The notes under the pieces: model-generated | Seen by the model: the letters and a program-made list of their open reading frames with translations, nothing else | Told to the model about the DNA's origin: nothing | Database searches by the model: none | Position numbers and translations under genes: made by a program | NCBI GenBank assembly: GCA_001774685.1 | Contig: MFAS01000001.1 | Coordinates: forward strand, 705,485 to 769,484 | Source of the DNA: Candidatus Collierbacteria bacterium RIFOXYD2_FULL_45_13 | GTDB taxonomy: Bacteria > Patescibacteriota > Microgenomatia > UBA1400 > MFAQ01 | Reading direction: 5' to 3' | DNA: 64,000 nt | Part shown: piece after piece, positions 11,875-51,236 of the stretch | How the letters are laid out: each line of letters starts with the position of its first letter | Position numbering within the stretch: position 1 is the stretch's first letter

Positions 11875-12396
11875 ATGAAGAAGGCTGTTTTCCCGTTTTT
11901 CATTTCCGTTTTGGTGCTTGTCGCTCTTGCCTGTAGCTTGAATCCTGCGACTGTTTTTGCTACTCCCACCCCTCTTCCCACCCAGACCCCTCTTCCCACC
12001 TTCACACCTTTGCCTTCCCCCACTTCCCCATCAAGACCCGGGGTCGACTTTCCCGTCCGTTATAGCGGCACCTCTTTTACGGTGATGGAGATTTCACTCG
12101 TTACCAGCTGGAGTTTTGATGGTGACACCAAGATTCCTACGAGAACAGGCGATCTTTTTTTAGTCGTCTACCTCAAGTTTGAAGGGGATCTGAATACTGT
12201 TGTCCTGCCTCAGACTGAAGATTCGGAAAAGACGTTTCATATCGAAGATAACAACGGTCGTGTAGATCAATGGGCGCGTTTTGAACCAAGCCCCACCGTC
12301 CTTGTGGCCATCTTTGTGGGCGACGGAAGTGCCAGCAATTATATCTTTACCTTCCCCGATGGACAGGAGATCGACCTCCAATCTTTTTTATACTAA
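11875..12396 (+). CDS. secreted protein with a Pro/Thr-rich linker
   Basis: Strong Shine-Dalgarno (aaaaaaggagg) upstream; N-terminal signal peptide, a PTPLPTQTPLPT linker, then a beta-rich domain. Confidence 0.55.
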   Translation: MKKAVFPFFISVLVLVALACSLNPATVFATPTPLPTQTPLPTFTPLPSPTSPSRPGVDFPVRYSGTSFTVMEISLVTSWSFDGDTKIPTRTGDLFLVVYLKFEGDLNTVVLPQTEDSEKTFHIEDNNGRVDQWARFEPSPTVLVAIFVGDGSASNYIFTFPDGQEIDLQSFLY

Positions 12397-12444
12397 TACC
12401 CGGAGATAGCCTCCCGGGTGAGCTCCACGGTTAGTCTTTATATG

Positions 12445-12470
12445 CCCCGGTTATAACCGGGGCTCTTTTG
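12445..12470 (+). terminator. Rho-independent terminator
   Basis: Hairpin ccccgg-ttataa-ccgggg followed by ctctttt. Confidence 0.6.
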
Positions 12471-12495
12471 TGCCAAATCGGTTAAAATACACATA

Positions 12496-14547
12496 ATGGA
12501 CTTTCAACTAGAATCGACCTACCGACCTACCGGAGATCAGCCCAATGCTATCGAAAAACTGGCCATCTCTATCGATCAGCAAAATCCTCACCAAACCTTG
12601 GTGGGAGTTACCGGTAGTGGTAAAACCTTTACGATTGCCAACGTCATCCAAAAAACTCAGCTCCCGACTCTGGTCATGTGCCACAACAAAACCCTGGCAT
12701 CACAGCTATACCAAGAGTTCAGAGACTTCTTTCCCCACAATGCCGTCTCATATTTTGTTTCCTACTACGATTACTACCAGCCGGAAGCCTACATTCCCCA
12801 AACCGACACCTATATCGAAAAAGAAGCTGATATCAATCCGGAGATCGACAAATTCCGCCTAACTACTACGGCCAACCTACTATCACGCCCCGATAGTATT
12901 GTGGTTGCCTCCGTTTCGTGTATTTACAATATCGGCTCACCTCTTGACCAGGAAAAGAACTTGTTGCCTCTGGCCAAAGGACAGGTAATCTCTCGGGATA
13001 CCGTCCTCATGCGCCTGTCTGACCTTCAATACACCAGAACAAATTCTGAACTGACTCGGGGTATGTACCGCGCCGTCGGCAGTACCGTCCAGCTTTTTCC
13101 CTCCTACAAAGATATCATCATTTCCATGAATTTCAGTGGTAGCTCGCTGGAAAATATTGAAATTCTCGATCCGATGAACTTCACCAGGATCGACGATGAA
13201 GACCTAGACAATACCGGCTTTATCACCATTCATCCCGCCAAACTGTTTATCACCAACCCTAAAACCCAGGGCGATGCTGTTGCCAATATAAGAAAAGACT
13301 TGGAAACCCAGGTGAAAGCATTTAAAGATGCCGGTAAGATTATTGAAGCCCATCGGATCGAACAAAAGGTTAATTACGATCTCTCCATGCTCGAAGAGGT
13401 GGGCTATGTCAGCGGCATCGAAAATTATTCCCGCTACTTTGATGGCCGCGTACCGGGTTCTGCCCCATATTCCCTGTTTGAATATTTTCATTACAACGCC
13501 AAGAAATTTAACAAACCCGGTTTCCTAACCGTCATCGACGAATCCCATATTTCTCTGCCTCAAGTCAGAGGGATGTACAACGGTGATCAAGCCCGTAAAG
13601 ACAACCTAATCAATTTTGGTTTCCGTCTCCCCAGTGCCAAAGACAACCGTCCCCTAACCTACACCGAGTGGCAATCCAGAACTCCGATCAAACTCTACTG
13701 CTCCGCCACTCCCACCGAACACGAACTATCGCTCTCGCGTGGAAGCAAGATCCCCACAGTTGCGGAGCAACTTATCCGTCCCACCGGACTCCTAGATCCA
13801 CAAATACAGGTTTTCCCTGCCAAAGGCCAGATCGATCACCTGACTCAAGAAGTCATCAAAAGAACGGCCAAGGGCGAAAGAACTTTGATACTTACGATGA
13901 CCAAGAGAATGGCCGAGGATCTTTCCGATCACCTTAAAGAAAAATATCAATTGAAGGTTGAGTATCTTCACTCGGATATACATACAATTGACCGTGCCGA
14001 TATCTTGGACAAGCTACGCTTGGGCGACTTCGACTGTCTCGTCGGTATCAATCTCTTGCGCGAAGGACTTGATCTACCGGAAGTCTCATTGGTGGCCATT
14101 CTGGATGCCGATAAAGAAGGTTTCTTGCGCACTTCGACAGCACTCATTCAAACCATGGGCCGCGCCGCCCGTCACGTCAACGGTGAGGTCTATCTATATG
14201 CCGACCGCATCTCCGATTCCATGAAAATCGCCATGGAAGAAACTCTTCGCCGGCGGAAAATTCAGCTGGATTACAACACCAAGCACGGCATTACTCCACA
14301 GGGGATAGTCAAGCCAATCCGCGACCGATTATTTAAGGCCGAAAGCCAAACGCCAGCTCCCAGAATCAAAGAACTGGCCGAGCACGGCTGGAAAGAGATT
14401 GATGATATCAATCCGGAAGCCCTCACTCCTCAGAAGAAGAAAATCCTCGTCGTCAAACTAAAAAAAATGATGAACCAAGCAGCCAACTCCTGGAACTTCG
14501 AACTCGCCGCCCGCTACCGCGACACCATTCGAAAATTGGGGCAATAA
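12496..14547 (+). CDS. uvrB: excinuclease ABC subunit B
   Basis: 683 aa with the helicase motifs GVTGSGKT and DESH, and a C-terminal UVR domain (ELAARYRD). Confidence 0.95.
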   Translation: MDFQLESTYRPTGDQPNAIEKLAISIDQQNPHQTLVGVTGSGKTFTIANVIQKTQLPTLVMCHNKTLASQLYQEFRDFFPHNAVSYFVSYYDYYQPEAYIPQTDTYIEKEADINPEIDKFRLTTTANLLSRPDSIVVASVSCIYNIGSPLDQEKNLLPLAKGQVISRDTVLMRLSDLQYTRTNSELTRGMYRAVGSTVQLFPSYKDIIISMNFSGSSLENIEILDPMNFTRIDDEDLDNTGFITIHPAKLFITNPKTQGDAVANIRKDLETQVKAFKDAGKIIEAHRIEQKVNYDLSMLEEVGYVSGIENYSRYFDGRVPGSAPYSLFEYFHYNAKKFNKPGFLTVIDESHISLPQVRGMYNGDQARKDNLINFGFRLPSAKDNRPLTYTEWQSRTPIKLYCSATPTEHELSLSRGSKIPTVAEQLIRPTGLLDPQIQVFPAKGQIDHLTQEVIKRTAKGERTLILTMTKRMAEDLSDHLKEKYQLKVEYLHSDIHTIDRADILDKLRLGDFDCLVGINLLREGLDLPEVSLVAILDADKEGFLRTSTALIQTMGRAARHVNGEVYLYADRISDSMKIAMEETLRRRKIQLDYNTKHGITPQGIVKPIRDRLFKAESQTPAPRIKELAEHGWKEIDDINPEALTPQKKKILVVKLKKMMNQAANSWNFELAARYRDTIRKLGQ

Positions 14548-43337: not shown

Positions 43338-43355
43338 GTGACTCGGGGCGGACTC
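43338..43355 (-). repeat. 18-nt direct repeat of the tRNA-Arg(TCT) 3' end (att-like)
   Basis: gtgactcggggcggactc is identical to 43475-43492. Confidence 0.85.
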
Positions 43356-43475
43356 CTCTCGGTCACCACCTGCTGGTGGTGCCTCAAGACCCGGCTCAGC
43401 GCCGTCGCGCTTCTGCCATCCTCGCTCGCCCAAAATAACATTAAAAATCTCCCCACAAGGGAGAGATTTTCAATG

Positions 43476-44644: not shown

Positions 44645-47251
44645 TTATACTTGCCTTTTTCGCCAAAGGGAGAACAAGATAGAAACCAGAAGGGAAAGGA
44701 CAACTGTGGCAAGAACCAAAGAGACTGGATTCTTATAGATCGGAGTTTTGCTTTCCTCCGTTACCCGAATATCAAAGTTGAATTGTTTGGTATTGTCTCC
44801 TTCGAGGGTGACTTTTTGTTCTCTGGTAAAGTTGGCGTAGGCTATTTTGATCAAGTGGTTTCCTCCGGGAACGTTATGGAAAAGGGCGATTCCCTGCTTG
44901 TCGGTGTAGCTGGTTTGGATGTCGGAATGAATTTCTACTCTGGCATTAATGATCGGTTGATTTTGCTTACTAATGACCTTGACCTGGACAGTATAACCTT
45001 GCTGTTGGACCTGTTGCTTCTCTTCCTCAGACTGAACCGGAATTTGTTCTTGGTTAGTGATTTCGGTTTGTAAGTTTCCCTGAGTCTGATAGTTAACACC
45101 TGAAGCAGCCGAACTATAGTTAAGGGAAAGATAAAAGACTGGGTAATTGTAGCTATTACCTACCTGATCTTTCAAGCTAAGATTGGTTTGGTAGTATCCG
45201 TCGATTAATGGATAGGGAACAGTGATATAGAAACGGGCATATTTTTCATTAAGAGGTTCATCTTTGATGTCGGTTAAAGAATATTCTTTGGTCAGATGAT
45301 CAATAAAATCGCCTCGACTATCTTTTCTTTTCAGTGTTAGAGTTAGGGTTAGGGGGCCGGAACAAACTTTGTCAAAAGTATCCTTGGTATCATTAGCATT
45401 GGTTTTTGTAGAGCCTTGGTAGGGATCAGAGGCTTTACCAGAAAAAGATGGTGTTCGGTTGGTAACATTAAGTTTATAAACCTGACCTTGTGCAACAGTC
45501 GAAACATTGGCAACTGCCAGTTCAGAGATAGAAGGATTAGTTTTATCGAGATAAAAGTCTTTGGATTCTTCTTTGCTGTTGCCGGCATTATCATAAGCAA
45601 TTACTTTCCAGGAGTGCTTGCCCTCGGTTAGTTCAGCAGAGTCAAGGCCTTTGAAATAGACCCTGATCTGGTCGTTGGTTGAGTCAGAATCATTTTCGTT
45701 GGTAAATTCTACTTTAACACTGGAATCATCCTTCCAAACATAAGCTGAGGATCCGTTGCCAGAAGCCGGAATGCCGGTAGTAGACCAATTCTGGTTTTTG
45801 CCGTCATCCAGAAAAACCGAATAAGAACTGATACCGGCAGTAGCATCAGTGGCTTTTTTGAAAACTAAAGTTGGTCTGGTAAAGTCTTTGGTATAACCGG
45901 TGGGAGAATCCAAAGTCAGACTAATCGGAACGGTGGTGTCGATGGTAAAACTATCAGTTGAAGCATTGGCGTTACTCGTGGTATTGGAGTTGGAATCAGT
46001 AGCCCGTACATAGATCGTGTGGGCTCCGTCAGCTAGAGCTGGAGAAACGGTGCAGGTAAAAGCCTCGGAGGCCTCATCAAAAGTGCCATCGTCGGCCGTG
46101 CAGGCCGTCCAACTACCGGTGGTTCCGTCCATTTGATATTCAACGGAACTGACTGTACCTTCATCCTCAGTGGCTGTTCCTGTGATGGCTGGTGTGGCAT
46201 CAGAAGTTGGATCTGGAGAGAAAGCGGAAAGAGAAATTGAAGGCGCGGCGCTATCCGGGGTCGGAGTGTAATAGACTTTTCGGGTTCTGGACCCCGTATC
46301 TCCGCCAATCAACCACATCTGGCTATCATAGACGACGGAAGAATGGGTATAAGTGGCTACCGGCAAAGCGTCGGTGCCCGCCTCTGTCCAGGTAATACCA
46401 TCAGCTGAGGAGTAGACTCTTCGGGACCTAGCAAATGAAGTCGTAGCTCCTCCAATCACCCACATTTTGCTATCAAAAACGACTGCAGCACTCCATCCAG
46501 TAACCACCGGCAAAGCATTGGTGCCTGCTTCTGTCCAGGTAATCCCATCACTAGAGTAGTAGACTTTTCTGACGAGACCCCCAGCGTATCCTCCAATCAC
46601 CCACATTTTGCTATCAAAGACGACCGAAGAATGGTTATAAGTGGCTACCGGCAAAGCATTGGTGCCTGCTTCTGTCCAGGTAATCCCATCACTAGAGTAG
46701 TAGACTTTTCGGGTTGCGGCAGGAACTGACCCCCCTATCACCCACATTTTGCTATCGAAAACGACCGAAGAATGACCTTCAGTACGCACCGGCAAAGCGT
46801 CGGTGCCCGCCTCTGTCCAGGTAATACCATCGGTAGAGTAGTAGACTTTTCTTTTTATTGCGTCTACGCCCCCGGCCCCAGTATTTCCGCCTATCACCCA
46901 CATCTTGCTATCAAAGACTACAGAAGTATGATTGTAAGTACCCACCGGCAAAGCGTCGGTGCCCGCCTCTGTCCAGGTAATACCATCGGTAGAGTAGTAG
47001 ACTTTTCGGGTTGCGCTCCCCGTATTTCCTCCAATCACCCACATTTTGCTATTGAAAACGATGGAAGAAAGATAGGATGTGGCTACTGGCAAGGCGTCAG
47101 TTCCCGCTTCGACCCAAGAGGAGCCGTCAGGAAGAGCCAGAACTGTTTTGGTTACCAGTGGATTAAACAGAAAAGAGATAAGAAAGCAACTCAAGAGAAC
47201 TATTCTAGATAAGATTTTTTTGATATTAAAGATTTTCAAAAACTTATTCAA
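44645..47251 (-). CDS. cell-surface protein: signal peptide, six or seven Kelch-like beta-propeller repeats, Ig-like domains and a C-terminal TM anchor
   Basis: 868 aa. A roughly 49-aa repeat (YYS.DGITWTEAGT.ALPV......SSVVFDSKMWVIGG) occurs six or more times and is encoded by near-identical 147-bp DNA units. The C-terminal hydrophobic segment is followed by RKRQV. Confidence 0.7.
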   Translation of the reverse strand: MNKFLKIFNIKKILSRIVLLSCFLISFLFNPLVTKTVLALPDGSSWVEAGTDALPVATSYLSSIVFNSKMWVIGGNTGSATRKVYYSTDGITWTEAGTDALPVGTYNHTSVVFDSKMWVIGGNTGAGGVDAIKRKVYYSTDGITWTEAGTDALPVRTEGHSSVVFDSKMWVIGGSVPAATRKVYYSSDGITWTEAGTNALPVATYNHSSVVFDSKMWVIGGYAGGLVRKVYYSSDGITWTEAGTNALPVVTGWSAAVVFDSKMWVIGGATTSFARSRRVYSSADGITWTEAGTDALPVATYTHSSVVYDSQMWLIGGDTGSRTRKVYYTPTPDSAAPSISLSAFSPDPTSDATPAITGTATEDEGTVSSVEYQMDGTTGSWTACTADDGTFDEASEAFTCTVSPALADGAHTIYVRATDSNSNTTSNANASTDSFTIDTTVPISLTLDSPTGYTKDFTRPTLVFKKATDATAGISSYSVFLDDGKNQNWSTTGIPASGNGSSAYVWKDDSSVKVEFTNENDSDSTNDQIRVYFKGLDSAELTEGKHSWKVIAYDNAGNSKEESKDFYLDKTNPSISELAVANVSTVAQGQVYKLNVTNRTPSFSGKASDPYQGSTKTNANDTKDTFDKVCSGPLTLTLTLKRKDSRGDFIDHLTKEYSLTDIKDEPLNEKYARFYITVPYPLIDGYYQTNLSLKDQVGNSYNYPVFYLSLNYSSAASGVNYQTQGNLQTEITNQEQIPVQSEEEKQQVQQQGYTVQVKVISKQNQPIINARVEIHSDIQTSYTDKQGIALFHNVPGGNHLIKIAYANFTREQKVTLEGDNTKQFNFDIRVTEESKTPIYKNPVSLVLATVVLSLLVSILFSLWRKRQV

Positions 47252-47322: not shown

Positions 47323-49773
47323 CTATTTAAATATACCAACAATTAAATTACATATTTTCGAAATTATATCCTGTGTTTTCGAAAAGATTGTACTCTGGTT
47401 ATTTGATAACACAGGCGCTACAACCGAGGTAACAGGGGTTGCTTCGGGAACATCGGTATCTTCGGTCTGTAAAGGGGTAACCTCTGGATTTGTTGTATAA
47501 GACCCAGAACTATAACTTAGATAAAAAGGGCTCATGGTTAATTTGTTATTTGACAAGTCAGTTACCTCAATGACAACTTTATACAAACCATTAACCAGTG
47601 GCTTTGACGGGGTCAAACTAAAGGTAGTGTACTTTGTTAAACTATCACTCAAAATATTCGCAAGCTCAGCACTGGTCAAACTATAATCATAGTATTTTTT
47701 ATATGCGCCTTGTTTTTTAATATCTATAGATACAGTCTTTGGCCCAGAGGCCACACTCTCAAAAGTATCGGTCGTTCCATCAGAATTTGTTTTAGTGCTT
47801 CCCATGAATTTATCAAAAGCAGTGCCCGAAAAAACCGGGTTTCTGAATTGCGATTTAAGCCGGTATGTCTTGCCCGGTGTGATAGAACCGAGTCCTTGAA
47901 TGGCTAGACTTTTGATTTCTGGGTTTGTCTTGTCCAGGTAAACATTATTGGACACGACTCTTTCATTTAACTCACTGTCATAAGCCGTGACTGACCAGGA
48001 ATGGGCTCCTTCAGACAAAAAGTTTGGCTCAAAACCTTTGATTAAGACAGTTATTTCATCGTTGCCTGAGTCTGAGTCGTTTTCGTTACGATAAGTTACT
48101 TTATAGTTACTGTCATCTAAATGGACATAATCCTGTTGGCCGTTTCCGCTGGCCGGTAAACCTGAAATAACGAAGTTTCGATGTTTGTCTCTATCAAAGT
48201 TGACGGAATAAGAGGAGATACCATTGGTATCCGATGACTTATTAAAAACCAATACGGGTTTGTTGTCATTGGTATAATCGACAGGAGAAATCATCTTAAA
48301 ACTTACCGGCGGCGTAATATCCAATGTATAAGTTAACATGAAAATATCAGTTGATCCATTTGAAGTATGGGGCTCACTGTTGTTGTCGCCATTAAAATTC
48401 ATAGTGTTGGCAAACGCACCCGATACATGAAAAGTATTTGAATAAATATCAATAAATGTAGGATAATCGTAGCCTGTTCCTCCCCACGTTCTGGTCCATT
48501 GATAATTAAGGTCGCTATCATATTTCGTGAGGTATAAATCATACAAGCCGTTTGATACATGATTATCAACGCTTTCGCTTGAATCAAAATCAATGGTGTT
48601 TGAAAAAATTCCCCAAATATACAGATTATTGTTGACATCTTTAGTTATATTATAAGCCTCATCTACTCCACTTCCACCAACTGTTTTTATGGATTTGAAA
48701 TTTCCATCTAAGGATAACTCTAGAATATAAATATCAGAAGAACCGCCCACTGTTTTGTTTTGAGTTCCAGAACCTGGATCGAAATCGACAGTGGTAACGA
48801 ATATGCCCGATATCAGGATTCTATCACCAACAAAGGTAAAACCCATCGCACGATCAGTACCCGATCCGCCCCAATTTTTAACCCAAAGAAAGTTTCCGTC
48901 GGCGTCAAATTTTGAGATAAAGTTGTCGTAGCTTCCGTTTGATGTTCGATTGTCTGTACCCGATCCAGGGTCAAAATCGACGGTGTTGAAAAAATCTCCT
49001 AATAGATAAAAATTGTTGTTTGCATCAAAATAAATTTGATCGGAATAATCATGATTACTCCCTCCAAACGTTTTTGTCCAAACATGATTACCACTTAAAT
49101 CGAATTTTGTAAGAAAGATATCGTATCCGCCATTTGAAGTATGATTGTCTGTACCTGCGCCCGGATCAAAGTCTGGTGTGGAGAAAAATCTGCCATAAAC
49201 ATATATATTTGTATAATCATTATTAAAAGAAACTATTTCTGGCCTATCGTGAGAATCTCCACCCCATGTTTTGGTCCACTGATGATTACCATTTGAATCA
49301 TACTTAGTCAGGAAACCATCAAGGCCGTTTGCGGTATGATTGTCTGTACCTGCACCTGGGTCAAAATCAACAGTACTTTCGAATTCTCCAGTAACGTAAA
49401 CATTGTTGTCGGTGTCAAAAGTTAAGCTATTATAATCATCAAAAGTTCCTGCCCCCCCCCAAACCTTTGTCCATAAGTAATTACCGCCGGAATCGTATTT
49501 AGAAAGAAACATATCATATCCTCCCGCAGAAGTATAACTATCAACACCTACCGTCGGGTCAAAATCAACAGTTGTTGAAAAATAACCAAAAATATATGTG
49601 TTTCCGTCAAAATCTGTTTTTACTTTTGCCCAATCAACCCCGCTTCCACCAATTGATATGCCTGATTGATAAATTAAACCATCCACGGCTAGAATCTTTT
49701 GTGGAAACACAAACGAAAGCGAGAATATTGTTATTGATACGCAGACAGCCCTGATAAACATACGGATATTCAT
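47323..49773 (-). CDS. secreted protein with SBBP-type beta-propeller repeats and a C-terminal half paralogous to the upstream gene
   Basis: 816 aa with a signal peptide. About eight repeats of the form WTKTWGG...D......GN.YV.G.F..TVDFDPG.GTDN match the SBBP beta-propeller pattern. The C-terminal roughly 300 aa (ISSYSV...PASGNG...NENDSDS...DKTNP) aligns to the upstream protein. Confidence 0.7.
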   Translation of the reverse strand: MNIRMFIRAVCVSITIFSLSFVFPQKILAVDGLIYQSGISIGGSGVDWAKVKTDFDGNTYIFGYFSTTVDFDPTVGVDSYTSAGGYDMFLSKYDSGGNYLWTKVWGGAGTFDDYNSLTFDTDNNVYVTGEFESTVDFDPGAGTDNHTANGLDGFLTKYDSNGNHQWTKTWGGDSHDRPEIVSFNNDYTNIYVYGRFFSTPDFDPGAGTDNHTSNGGYDIFLTKFDLSGNHVWTKTFGGSNHDYSDQIYFDANNNFYLLGDFFNTVDFDPGSGTDNRTSNGSYDNFISKFDADGNFLWVKNWGGSGTDRAMGFTFVGDRILISGIFVTTVDFDPGSGTQNKTVGGSSDIYILELSLDGNFKSIKTVGGSGVDEAYNITKDVNNNLYIWGIFSNTIDFDSSESVDNHVSNGLYDLYLTKYDSDLNYQWTRTWGGTGYDYPTFIDIYSNTFHVSGAFANTMNFNGDNNSEPHTSNGSTDIFMLTYTLDITPPVSFKMISPVDYTNDNKPVLVFNKSSDTNGISSYSVNFDRDKHRNFVISGLPASGNGQQDYVHLDDSNYKVTYRNENDSDSGNDEITVLIKGFEPNFLSEGAHSWSVTAYDSELNERVVSNNVYLDKTNPEIKSLAIQGLGSITPGKTYRLKSQFRNPVFSGTAFDKFMGSTKTNSDGTTDTFESVASGPKTVSIDIKKQGAYKKYYDYSLTSAELANILSDSLTKYTTFSLTPSKPLVNGLYKVVIEVTDLSNNKLTMSPFYLSYSSGSYTTNPEVTPLQTEDTDVPEATPVTSVVAPVLSNNQSTIFSKTQDIISKICNLIVGIFK

Positions 49774-49999
49774 TCCTCTATATTATAGTTATTATAGTAA
49801 TAAAACAAATTTGTCCAATATCTGTGTTTGCATATCTCGTATTTATTCAAGACTTTTTGCGTCTGGTTGACCAAATGCATTGTCCACAACATCGTCCATC
49901 TGCTAAAGAATTGTACTCTGAAATATTCTGGCAGAGTTCAAAAATTCGCTGAAAAACAGTGATGGTTTTGAAAAATGTGACTTATTGGAGCGAATGGGG

Positions 50000-50186
50000 C
50001 CTGCCCGCCGGTAGGTGGGGGAGTCGGCCTCTTCGGTCTCGCTTACTAGCTCGCCTCTGAGCGCGCCTCGCCGCCAGTCGCGCTTCCGGCGGGATCAGCT
50101 CTCGTAAGAGCTAGTGCCGAAATATCTTTCGGCGCCGACTAGTTCACACAACAAAGTCCCCCATAAAGAGGGACTTCGTTTTATTG
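50000..50186 (-). repeat. GC-rich tRNA-flanking element downstream of tRNA-Gly(TCC)
   Basis: Hairpin aagtccc-ccataaaga-gggactt next to the tRNA. A core gaagcgcgactggcggcgaggcgcgctcagaggcgag is homologous to the cores of the other three elements. A degenerate copy of the tRNA 3' end (gtgggggagtcgg) sits at 50014-50027. GC content is visibly far above local background. Confidence 0.55.
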
Positions 50187-50257
50187 AGCGGGTGAGGGGA
50201 GTCGGACCCCTTTCATCAGCTTGGAAAGCTGAGGTAATACCGGTATACGACACCCGC
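50187..50257 (-). tRNA. tRNA-Gly(TCC)
   Basis: Perfect acceptor GCGGGTG/CACCCGC, anticodon stem TCAGC/GCTGA with loop TTTCCAA, and T-stem AGGGG/CCCCT. The T-loop is the atypical TCCGACT. Confidence 0.7.
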
Positions 50258-50261
50258 GTTG

Positions 50262-50292
50262 TAAATATTTTATCAAAAACCCCACCGGTTTG
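50262..50292 (-). terminator. Rho-independent terminator for the 50306-50635 membrane-protein gene
   Basis: Palindromic ccccacc-ggttt-ggtgggg; on the reverse strand it is followed by ttttt. Confidence 0.6.
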
Positions 50293-50305
50293 GTGGGGAA
50301 AATAT

Positions 50306-50635
50306 TTATCTGGGAGTAGAGTACTCAATTAGGAAGGAAACCAACAATAGAAACAGTGCCACATACAAGCAGGGGAGTGAGTTGGTAATGGCAACGGATC
50401 CAAGCACCATCAAACCAAATAAGAAAAAGGAACCAGGAATATCTATATATATCTTCACTCGCAATATAGCCTTAAAAATCTCGAAAAAAACCAAAATTGA
50501 TCCTCCCATGACAACAAACATCATGACCGGGAAAATATGCGGTAGAAAACCGATCCTCATCGACCCGCCCCAAAGCAAACCGCTAACAAGGGCATATAGG
50601 CAAGTTAGCAATATGAGCCAAAAACGCTTATTCAT
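50306..50635 (-). CDS. small polytopic membrane protein
   Basis: 109 aa, three or four TM helices. Confidence 0.45.
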   Translation of the reverse strand: MNKRFWLILLTCLYALVSGLLWGGSMRIGFLPHIFPVMMFVVMGGSILVFFEIFKAILRVKIYIDIPGSFFLFGLMVLGSVAITNSLPCLYVALFLLLVSFLIEYSTPR

Positions 50636-50918: not shown

Positions 50919-50920
50919 CA

Positions 50921-50955
50921 AATAAATCTCTCCCTCGTGGGGAGATTTTTATTTG
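50921..50955 (+). terminator. Rho-independent terminator after tRNA-His; also the 5' part of the tRNA-flanking element
   Basis: aaatctctccc-tcgt-ggggagattt followed by ttatttgg. The hairpin is almost identical to the one next to tRNA-Arg. Confidence 0.65.
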
Positions 50956-51077
50956 GATAATAATTACGGGACTCGAGTGACGGAACCAGTTTCGTGACGA
51001 ACCTGGTGAGGCGGGTCTTGAGGCAATTTCTATTGAAATTGACCGAAAGGAGTCCCGACGTAAGGAGAGTCCCCATA

Positions 51078-51092
51078 CCCGCAATCCACCCA
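51078..51092 (+). repeat. 15-nt near-direct repeat of the tRNA-His 3' end (att-like)
   Basis: cccgcaatccaccca versus cccgtaatccaccca at 50906-50920. Confidence 0.7.
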
Positions 51093-51236
51093 CTTGATGT
51101 ATCAAAAAATAGAGGTCGATGGGGAAACTGTCGGTGGTATAGCTTTAACAGTTCAGGACGGTCTTTTTATGGTAAAATAACTATAGTTAAGGGGATAGAG
51201 TAAATATTATTACAAAACACTCTATCATACTATACT

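Follow-up and report, generated by a model that had tools for sequence, protein, structure and literature searches.

A conserved three-way-junction element behind tRNA genes of Collierbacteria, tentatively read as a small non-autonomous cassette

The tRNA-Gly(TCC) locus

Directly 3' of the tRNA-Gly(TCC) gene in a 64-kb stretch of DNA from Candidatus Collierbacteria bacterium RIFOXYD2_FULL_45_13 (hereafter the window, meaning the whole stretch analysed) lies a structured, GC-rich segment, which we describe here together with the family, called E, to which it belongs. The window is bacterial chromosome with an overall GC content of 43% and 11 tRNA genes; its NadE shows 89% identity with the counterpart in a Candidatus Collierbacteria metagenome-assembled genome (MAG), and Collierbacteria contigs and the window have a common gene order. 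The exact NadE sequence matched no recorded protein, probably owing to a different choice of start codon. The segment occupies 49987-50185 on the minus strand, which is also the strand of the tRNA, and is 72% GC; the GC fraction is 0.72 over 50000-50099 and 0.63 over 50050-50149, and ranges from 0.26 to 0.43 in the adjoining intervals of 49650-49999. Relative to shuffled sequences, its fold is more stable on both strands (z of -3.4 on the minus and -3.0 on the plus strand). A sequence-only reading of this DNA had singled out a GC-rich, hairpin-dense segment beside tRNA-Gly(TCC), and both composition and fold z-scores agree with it; it had placed the segment at 50000-50186, and the element proves to reach slightly further, to about 49987, and to be oriented with the tRNA on the minus strand. 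In the direction of the tRNA, the parts of the locus are as follows.

50186-50257, minus strand: tRNA-Gly(TCC), the gene preceding the element (ARAGORN; Rfam tRNA model, 53.3 bits)
50150-50180, minus strand: H0, a palindromic terminator-type hairpin, AACGAAGUCCCUC-UUUAU-GGGGGACUUUGUU, between the tRNA and the element (minimum free energy (MFE) fold)
50134-50140, minus strand: 5' strand of the closing helix P1, AGUCGGC, the complement of GCCGACU in the T-loop/T-stem copy at 50022-50028 (sequence and MFE fold)
50116-50133, minus strand: extra hairpin 1, GCCGAAA-GAUA-UUUCGGC, an insertion peculiar to the Gly copy (fold; absent from the family consensus)
50097-50112, minus strand: extra hairpin 2, AGCUCU-UACG-AGAGCU, likewise peculiar to the Gly copy (fold; absent from the family consensus)
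50029-50091, minus strand: scaffold core, comprising helix B, the junction CGCGCUC and helix C (alignment to model R2, below)
50017-50028, minus strand: 3' strand of P1 and T-stem copy, GCCGACUCCCCC, copied from the 3' side of the tRNA-Gly T-loop/T-stem, UCCGACUCCCCU (sequence comparison)
49999-50016, minus strand: 18-nt GC-rich palindrome, ACCUACCGGCGGGCAGGC, between the T-stem and acceptor copies (sequence; ortholog in L001)
49987-49998, minus strand: decayed copy of the acceptor 3' strand and discriminator, CCCAUUCGCUCC against CUCACCCGCUC in the tRNA (comparison with the tRNA and with the ortholog in L001)

All strings quoted in the sequence-only reading are found in the sequence: ctagtgccgaaatatctttcggcgccgactag corresponds to 50113-50144, the string given as the core to 50053-50089 read on the minus strand, and the aagtccc...gggactt hairpin to 50155-50178; gtgggggagtcgg is likewise present, its position being 50015-50027 and the proposed start at 50014 one base off. 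The degenerate copy of the tRNA-Gly 3' end that it recognised is indeed carried by the segment, but is not merely at its far end, as the T-loop/T-stem part makes up one strand of the closing helix.

P1 starts at 50140, about 46 nt past the tRNA end at 50186 and within the 39-59 nt spacing of the family, and the closing helix AGUCGGC/GCCGACU is followed by CCCCC. Helix B consists of a GCC/GGC stem, a GGA/GA internal loop and a short P2 (AGCGC-GACUG-GCGGC) with two mismatches at the P2 base, and helix C of the P3 CGAGC-UAGUAA-GCGAG with tandem G.A, then ACCGAAGAG. The same type of P3 recurs in L105 and L144 (L numbers denote the stretches compared with the window), and the core is about 85% identical, as counted by hand, to the copy at L027:6501-6593. 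In L001, which is syntenic with the window, the Gly ortholog bears a palindrome at the identical place (GCCTACCGGCGGGCAGGC); the decayed acceptor copy reads CCCATTCGCTCC in the window and CTCACCCGCTCC in the relative's orthologous copy. On these comparisons, we regard the Gly(TCC) copy as a genuine but worn, partly decayed member of its family. Two hairpins and a palindrome have been gained, the P2 has its two mismatches and most of the acceptor copy is lost; the copy is probably no longer active.

The palindrome has company elsewhere in these genomes. GC-rich mini-palindromes of the types GCCTGCCGGCAGGC, ACCTACCGGCGGGCAGGC and CCCGCCCGCAGGCGGG are inserted variously in the tails of E copies and in a second repeated element, X, described below; they were seen in the window (49999-50016 and 34990-35040), in the Arg and Gly tails of L001, in L016 and L053, and in the X copies of L006 and L059. 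They may add a third, miniature palindromic type to the repeat families of these genomes. Just past the element, on the side away from tRNA-Gly, lie two very large open reading frames (ORFs), at 47323-49773 and 44645-47251, both on the minus strand. One ORF beside the element, of 816 aa, has no Pfam match, and one of 868 aa near it has Kelch repeats, a bacterial Ig-like domain and a carboxypeptidase-regulatory-like domain; the two are probably surface proteins.

A covarying three-way junction closed by a copied piece of tRNA

A unit of the family comprises, in order, the tRNA, the terminator-like hairpin H0, a short spacer, a GC-rich scaffold of about 90-100 nt and a copy of the tRNA 3' part extending from the T-loop to the discriminator. 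An alignment of 44 copies resolves the scaffold into a three-way junction of the helices P1, B and C. The 5' strand of P1 complements the T-loop and the 3' side of the T-stem of the preceding tRNA, and its 3' strand is the copy of that same segment, so that P1 covaries with tRNA identity across the family; the respective anti-T strands are, for example, GGGACTCGAA (His), GGGGATTTGAA (Leu) and AGGATTCGAA (Gln). The helix B consensus comprises a GnC/Gn'C stem of 3 bp, the internal loop GGA/GA and a P2 whose apex is of the GYRAC type; the junction reads rGGU; and helix C has a CC/GG stem, a yGA/GAr motif and a variable P3 with AGCA, UAUU, GAAA or GAA loops.

Among 76 distinct model-aligned sequences, 96.5% of the cells are paired, and both sides change in 23 of the 25 pairs. 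Double-change cells number 520, against 138 in shuffles, with none of 500 shuffles reaching the observed value, and pairing falls to 20-45% in controls with slid partners. As judged from these alignments, the fold is real and under constraint, because covariation lies far above the shuffles and pairing with slid partners collapses. P1 is paired in 90.5% of cases, against 95-99% in the other helices.

All 83 of the distinct spacers between tRNA and element form an H0 hairpin of at least 8 bp, with a mean of -20.8 kcal/mol. It is usually a near-perfect palindrome of 14-19 bp, made of an A-tract, a GC core and a T-tract, and also pairs with the last few bases of the tRNA; a terminator is often found after the tail as well. 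The sequence-only reading had taken the hairpin at the Gly locus for a forward-strand terminator and inferred that the element might be transcribed in that direction. This is not borne out. A pattern scan calls the H0 core, 50158-50173, as a terminator-like site on the minus strand, directly after tRNA-Gly; the same kind of palindromic hairpin recurs in every tRNA-adjacent spacer; its wobble pairs are biased to the tRNA-sense strand (7.1% G.U, against 3.9% on the other, in MFE folds); and the purine-rich and GNRA-type loops of the family also fall on the tRNA-sense strand. The hairpin is best read as the terminator of tRNA-Gly itself and not as a sign of forward transcription of the element.

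A consensus scan of 49800-50400 found no sigma-70-like promoter around the Gly copy. A sequence conserved upstream of His-type copies, TGGATAAT, was considered as a promoter of E and is better explained as a hairpin arm pairing with the tRNA end. None of the tRNA genes inspected at the 3' end (Arg, Leu(CAG), His, Gly(TCC), Gln, Pro and Val) encodes a 3' CCA, and endonucleolytic trimming and CCA addition must therefore produce these ends; the trimming and CCA-adding enzymes become relevant if the tRNA-end copy of E interacts with them.

Family membership and the other copies in the window

Two covariance models were used: R1, built from 44 distinct seed copies with a long P2, and R2, built from eight short-P2 relatives with the Gly copy left out. 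R1 scores the Gly locus at just 9.9 bits (E-value 0.28), though at the correct place and strand; R2 scores it at 57.6 bits (E-value 3.7e-16; 50013-50105, minus strand). The weak R1 score is resolved by R2, because the latter was built from the matching short-P2 subfamily, and since R2 had not been given the Gly copy, we consider the membership of this segment in family E solid at the level of sequence and structure models. Together, R1 and R2 locate four copies in the window, namely that behind tRNA-Gly(TCC) and the following three.

50920-51095, plus strand: copy behind tRNA-His, with H0, scaffold at 50965-51066 and an interrupted copy of the His 3' end, ending ...CGCAATCCACCC (R1, 96.1 bits)
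43338-43474, minus strand: copy behind tRNA-Arg(TCT), with H0, scaffold at 43339-43431 and an 18/18-nt copy of the Arg 3' end, GAGTCCGCCCCGAGTCAC (R1, 45.2 bits, E-value 4.5e-13; R2, 62.3 bits)
35222-35365, plus strand: copy behind tRNA-Leu(CAG), with H0, scaffold at 35265-35361 and a 21/21-nt copy of the Leu 3' end (R1, 35.2 bits; R2, 102.2 bits)

The grouping of the Gly segment with the elements behind tRNA-Arg and tRNA-Leu, already proposed from the sequence, is upheld by the models, which add the tRNA-His copy. The Gly copy is also the longest in the window, as had been noted, its surplus length being the two hairpins between the 5' strand of the closing helix and the core. The Arg, Leu and Gly copies of the window form part of a short-P2 subfamily (P2 GCGC-GAC(U)G-GCGC, junction CGCGGUC) that is also present in L027, L034, L093, L105 and L144.

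The tRNA-Leu(CAG) gene (35140-35221) is in addition preceded by a partial copy of its own 5' end, at 35033-35100 on the plus strand (GGGCAGGTGGCGGAATG, a 41-nt insert, then GTAGACGCAG), about 40 nt upstream (35101-35139) of the real gene and with a GC palindrome in front. It may be a mirror image of the 3'-side phenomenon, that is, a rearrangement footprint 5' of a tRNA.

The earlier view that the segment is no housekeeping non-coding RNA (ncRNA) agrees with the Rfam results. Over the whole window tRNAs alone pass the gathering threshold, and at E-values up to 10 a search of 49850-50300 and of the His copy returned only tRNAs and noise and nothing relevant, ribozyme classes included. In the literature, we found no described equivalent of family E; the group I introns described in one paper from tRNA genes of Patescibacteria are unrelated to it. 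Hammerhead, group II domain V, k-turn, T-box, the 3' end of transfer-messenger RNA (tmRNA) and group I intron were each set aside in a by-eye check of the alignment, with wrong spacing or with conserved residues missing; in the case of the hammerhead, the yGA-P3-GAr motif resembles part of the core only, and the spacing read from the alignment is wrong.

Distribution and linkage to tRNA genes

A motif scan with one genome per species gave 79 stretches, and a metagenome scan a further 66 loci. The stretches that show the flanking consensus of E share one fixed spacing, 6/7, without exception, and belong to Collierbacteria, Woesebacteria, 'Patescibacteria group' MAGs and MAGs labelled 'uncultured Pseudomonadales'; scan matches in other phyla lack the flanking consensus, whatever their spacing, and were rejected as chance. 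Genomes and metagenomes together yielded 170 model hits at 111 loci, with 114 distinct sequences. Copies start 39-59 nt past a tRNA on the same strand in 58 of 78 (mode 44) and in 62 of 92 cases, behind tRNAs of more than 25 anticodon classes, and the remaining copies are second or third tandem units, lie at contig edges or mark the distal ends of islands. In L001, all seven of the seven tRNA transcription units end in a copy, viz., Val(TAC), Leu(CAG), Gln, Arg(TCT), Gly(TCC), Pro and His, and the window has copies at four of these seven; syntenic contigs of related Collierbacteria carry diverged copies behind the corresponding tRNAs.

Many E copies were seen in the 'uncultured Pseudomonadales' MAGs (L011-L013, L020, L024, L025, L027, L031, L034, L037, L054, and further L070-L072, L078, L081 and L085). 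The gene content of these MAGs is Collierbacteria-like, for example a GH57 glycosidase in L020, and the 'Pseudomonadales' label of these TPA (third-party annotation) assemblies is probably wrong.

Empty and filled sites, tandem arrays and cargo

At tRNA-Pro, the window and L004 have an empty site and L001 a filled one. The filled site is longer by about 155 bp (H0, spacer and scaffold), with 18-20 bp, GAGTCCTCTCACCCCGAC(AA), duplicated so as to stand on both sides, and the flank beyond the tail in the filled site is orthologous to the flank following the tRNA in the empty one. The Gln and Val(TAC) sites resemble Pro in being occupied in relatives and empty in the window. Of 86 distinct copies, 41 retain the last 15-21 nt of the tRNA almost perfectly, and the tails follow species-specific changes of their own tRNA; other copies retain only the part of the tail required for P1, the acceptor tail being lost in L008, L022 and L025.

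Tandem arrays of two to three identical or different units occur in L071, L055, L024 and L023. Other versions carry cargo between the tRNA and the distal scaffold and tail: a Na/Ca exchanger in L001; a methyltransferase, a NUDIX protein, a GT2 glycosyltransferase and a polyprenyl synthase in L051; and ORFs with an IS200 in L059. Further, the scaffold has been swapped at the orthologous Arg and Gly sites, which have a short P2 in the window and a long P2 in L001, combined in both with a shared old tail.

Several rearrangements were seen around these loci. At L006:700-2050, compared with 34499-35365 of the window and L001:2776-3542, the cluster Phe-Gly-Leu(GAG)-Val is inverted relative to tRNA-Leu(CAG), and the tail of the E copy behind tRNA-Val is of the Leu(CAG) type, an arrangement that fits an inversion through recombination between two inverted E copies; a LAGLIDADG-like ORF lies inside the inverted tRNA cluster. 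At L004:10294-10530 (plus strand), the T-loop and acceptor of tRNA-His read TTCAAAT and CCTCCAC, against TTCGAGT and AATCCAC in the window and L001, and the E tail keeps the window-type sequence, which suggests that the tRNA-His gene was replaced while the old tail remained. Behind tRNA-Arg(TCT) at L004:8700-8890 and L005:6180-6365 (both minus strand; GW2011_GWC2_44_18 lineage), a different, 77-bp spacer stands where the window has E. Next comes a second copy of the 3' half of tRNA-Arg, beginning at the anticodon loop, and in L005 the whole unit occurs in tandem; repeat units built on a tRNA 3' half are thus of two types. A strain polymorphism between L001 and L003 is only apparent, being due to NN masking in the stored record. 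For annotators, E copies account for partial-tRNA matches, GC-rich 'ncRNA-like' islands and repeat-driven inversions in Microgenomates assemblies.

Strict pairing in E and the RNA-like element X

The consensus helices of E contain 1707 Watson-Crick, 11 G.U and 26 A.C pairs (0.6% G.U and 1.5% A.C), whereas the acceptor and T stems of the tRNAs at the same loci contain 1030 Watson-Crick, 45 G.U and 7 A.C pairs (4.1% and 0.6%), a difference in wobble with a Fisher p of about 1e-10. The metagenome set shows the same pattern, with 1518 Watson-Crick, 12 G.U and 17 A.C pairs. Such strict Watson-Crick pairing fits a folded single-stranded DNA site, like integron attC, or else very fast turnover.

Outside the window, several relatives have a second repeated element, X, of about 380-460 nt and without an ORF, present in several copies per genome and without a match in Rfam. 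In tRNA-Gln islands it often lies directly 5' of H0 and a Gln-type E copy. Examples are the following.

L111:1375-1835, minus strand: X
L037:488-872, plus strand: X
L020:2795-3255, plus strand: X
L128:10730-11148 and 12335-12738, plus strand: X, two copies
L109:5573-5950, plus strand: X
L059:4230-4745, plus strand: X
L006:4358-4800, plus strand: X
L022:4028-4420, plus strand: X

Its alignment has a conserved multi-helix fold with many one-sided G.U changes, and its 3' end bears a T-loop-like hairpin, GAAAU-AAGUUCGA-AUUUC. Because of these one-sided changes X, unlike E, looks like real RNA on the E-sense strand, and it may be a new large ncRNA of mobile islands.

What the element may be

Any explanation must account for the architecture, the covarying fold, the tRNA linkage, the target duplication, the presence or absence at orthologous sites, the tandem arrays and the cargo versions that are observed. 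We tentatively prefer to see the Gly segment as a partly decayed, small non-autonomous cassette of Collierbacteria and related Microgenomates, of a kind that would enter the final tRNA of a unit at its T-loop region with the help of a trans-acting enzyme, although our doubts about this reading slightly outweigh our confidence in it. The comparison of empty and filled sites, the tandem arrays, the cargo islands and the turnover of subfamilies point to it.

On this proposal, a minimal cassette would comprise a replacement tRNA part (T-loop to discriminator), H0 and the scaffold of about 90 nt. Upon insertion in the T-loop region, the tRNA would stay intact and gain a new terminator, and the old tRNA 3' end would be displaced to the far side of the scaffold, where its T-loop/T-stem would pair with the element-borne anti-T strand and close the fold as P1. 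The folded single strand might then serve as the cis-acting site for insertion and excision, the anti-T strand might help to match the element to its target, and the enzyme would presumably act in trans.

Several points weigh against the cassette. No recombinase has come to light: neither integrase nor transposase was found in or beside copies when selected ORFs, mostly from islands at distal or tRNA-less copies, were searched against Pfam and PHROG, and the IS200 TnpA (Y1_Tnp) occurs in one island, L059, with no other tblastn match among 86 sequences (L001-L085 and the window). A viral or free form was likewise absent from a strict-pattern search of IMG/VR and from blastn against phage and plasmid records, both with zero matches. 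The empty sites could all be precise deletions between direct repeats. A cassette carrying the 3' end of one tRNA cannot simply hop to another, which leaves the spread to more than 25 classes unexplained; a staggered-cut duplication with re-pairing of P1 is a speculative route to it. The presence of E at every tRNA operon end of one genome would also fit a cellular function. Finally, the evidence on the folded form, RNA or single-stranded DNA, points in opposite directions: the purine-rich loops, GNRA-type tetraloops and tandem G.A on the tRNA-sense strand are typical of functional RNA, and whole-element MFE counts of 3.8-4.7% G.U blur the statistical wobble argument.

The wider search for a linked enzyme gave the same picture. 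Pfam on 40 ORFs of the window found housekeeping genes only; Pfam and PHROGs on the island ORFs of L020, L037, L051, L059, L109 and L128 found cargo and no integrase; TnpB/IscB, IS110 recombinase, Cas and reverse transcriptase were all absent from the scanned window and island ORFs; blastp among element-adjacent ORFs revealed no shared family; and the minimal units contain no ORF. No integron integrase-type gene was seen among the ORFs scanned near copies, in searches not aimed at IntI.

The most serious alternative, possible though in our view somewhat unlikely, is that E is a functional ncRNA tied to tRNA units, to be transcribed either through H0 or from a weak promoter located within the AT-rich spacer. 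The closing helix and tail would then imitate the cognate tRNA in its T-arm and acceptor 3' strand, the duplications reflecting the origin of the family and not its function, and the RNA could serve an enzyme of tRNA 3' ends (RNase Z, the CCA-adding enzyme or a toxin) as decoy or guide, or could be a self-cleaving ribozyme. The very strong covariation would be natural for such an RNA, as would the conserved junction and loop nucleotides (GAA, GGA/GA, the GYRAC apex, rGGU and yGA/GAr) and the GNRA and GAA loops and tandem G.A on the tRNA-sense strand; yet G.U pairs are nearly absent and fewer than A.C on the supposed RNA strand, unlike in the tRNAs and H0 of the same DNA. The occupancy of all seven units in L001, the retention of P1 where the acceptor tail is lost (L008, L022 and L025), the terminator often following the tail and the neighbouring X, RNA-like on the same strand, are also in its favour. 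On the other hand, a strong terminator precedes E and the Gly copy has no sigma-70-like promoter around it; close relatives lack a copy at orthologous tRNAs; tandem arrays and cargo islands are hard to reconcile with a housekeeping RNA; and no Rfam family, ribozymes included, matches at E-values up to 10. If E proves to be an RNA, tRNA 3' ends would have a new class of RNA devoted to them, well supported by 114 distinct sequences and by compensatory change at 23 of 25 pairs.

A further idea, which we think quite improbable, casts E as the programmable component that finds the target in an integration system guided by RNA or DNA. The 10-13-nt anti-T strand would pair with the target tRNA gene at the 3' strand of its T-loop/T-stem, and an enzyme supplied in trans would carry out the insertion. 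The P1 5' strand always complements the T-loop and T-stem 3' side of the preceding tRNA, its UCGAA part is conserved even in subtypes whose tail offers no partner, and the additional mismatches of P1 relative to the other helices fit a strand imposed by the target. The pairing is, however, explicable simply as closure of the fold in cis, and there is no candidate enzyme, with no adjacent TnpB, IscB, IS110 or Cas gene in the scanned ORFs. That E is either the recognition module of a base-pairing-guided cassette insertion, with the anti-T strand reading the T-loop/T-stem of its target and the folded junction, as RNA or single-stranded DNA, recruiting an enzyme in trans, or a new catalytic or tRNA-mimicking class of RNA is, taken as one proposition, unlikely; if one or the other were true, it would be a new kind of system and not a variant of integrase islands or miniature inverted-repeat transposable elements (MITEs).

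Tyrosine integrases classically leave behind a duplicated tRNA 3' end that begins in the T-loop, and the segments could accordingly be imagined as decaying attL/attR scars of integrase-bearing prophages or islands formerly resident in the tRNA genes; cargo islands at the same tRNAs, and the 77-bp unit with its anticodon-loop start at tRNA-Arg in L004 and L005, are in keeping with this. We hold it to be very unlikely, because the covariation contradicts it: a neutral remnant would not keep a 25-pair fold, compensatory at 23 of them, over 114 distinct copies and more than 25 tRNA classes. The fixed tRNA spacing of 39-59 nt would also be unexpected, and no integrase remnants were seen. A stand-alone housekeeping ncRNA (6S, signal recognition particle RNA, RNase P or tmRNA) lying near the tRNA by chance, to which the length of about 190 nt, the GC-richness and the stable fold might be ascribed, deserves next to no credence and is refuted by the membership in a multi-copy family, with four copies in 64 kb and several per genome elsewhere, and it also found no Rfam match at the gathering threshold or at E-values up to 10 and no tmRNA call by ARAGORN.

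Comparison with known systems

Set beside the guide RNAs of mobile elements, such as the IS110 bridge RNA or seekRNA, the TnpB/IscB omega RNA and the EBS-IBS (exon- and intron-binding site) pairing of group II introns, E likewise has a structured scaffold beside a target-matching stretch at the boundary. It differs in that no cognate protein gene is adjacent and the target-matching stretch is paired within the fold, and it does not match the Rfam HEARO and IS605-orfB motifs. The anti-T pairing hints at a principle of target matching that might be reprogrammable. Self-cleaving ribozymes (hammerhead, twister, twister-sister, pistol, hatchet and HDV-like) gave no Rfam match at E-values up to 10 with the Gly or His copies. 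Like GOLLD and ROOL, E and X are structured, non-coding and clustered with tRNA genes in variable regions; X, at 400-460 nt, is of that general kind, whereas E is far smaller, and neither matches Rfam models.

With MITEs, REP/REPIN, Correia, RUP and ERIC sequences and the Rickettsia palindromic elements, E shares a short, non-coding, multi-copy and strongly folded nature, lineage-specific subfamilies and, presumably, dependence on a trans-acting enzyme. Unlike MITEs, it has no constant terminal inverted repeats, as its outer helix varies with the tRNA and one arm is copied from the target; its target is a specific functional RNA gene, of which 18-21 bp are doubled; and no autonomous partner was found. 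As to the RAYT genes of REP/REPIN, no RAYT or transposase partner was found, and the sole Y1_Tnp among the 86 sequences is that of L059, which appears unrelated.

The tRNA-integrating islands and satellites, such as those of the P4 type and the tycheposons of Prochlorococcus, integrate into tRNA genes at their 3' part, rebuild the gene they enter and displace a partial copy from the T-loop onward, and they build tandem arrays with the newest unit beside the tRNA and with variable cargo. In E, too, a direct repeat of the tRNA 3' end bounds the insert (18/18 nt at Arg, 21/21 nt at Leu, degenerate at Gly, and at Pro in the comparison of empty and filled sites). In contrast to those islands, its units go down to about 130-200 bp, no integrase was found in the scanned ORFs, and it has a conserved three-way-junction scaffold with a closing helix built with the displaced tRNA piece. 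The tRNA 3'-end duplication is well known from integrase islands, and the tiny size, the absence of an integrase and a conserved three-way junction that makes use of the target are not known there. If E units are truly integrase-less mini-cassettes that restore the tRNA on entering it, they would show how the highly reduced genomes of the candidate phyla radiation acquire and shuffle accessory genes at tRNA loci.

The integron offers a parallel of another sort. As in attC, structure is kept over sequence in E, and a composite closing helix takes its 3' strand from downstream, in analogy to the R' box; as in integron cassettes, promoterless arrays grow at one attachment point and pairing is strictly Watson-Crick. 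The two also part ways: the E consensus lacks the RYYYAAC/GTTRRRY core and instead has a three-way junction with many conserved unpaired purines, and attachment is at the T-loop of a tRNA and not at attI, with no IntI-type gene among the ORFs scanned near copies. attC is used as a folded single strand, and a corresponding use of single-stranded DNA by E may be hinted at, if indirectly, by the strict pairing. Should E units prove to be cassettes, they would provide a new structure-dependent attachment site, to be placed beside the attC of integrons and the attP of the CTX phage.

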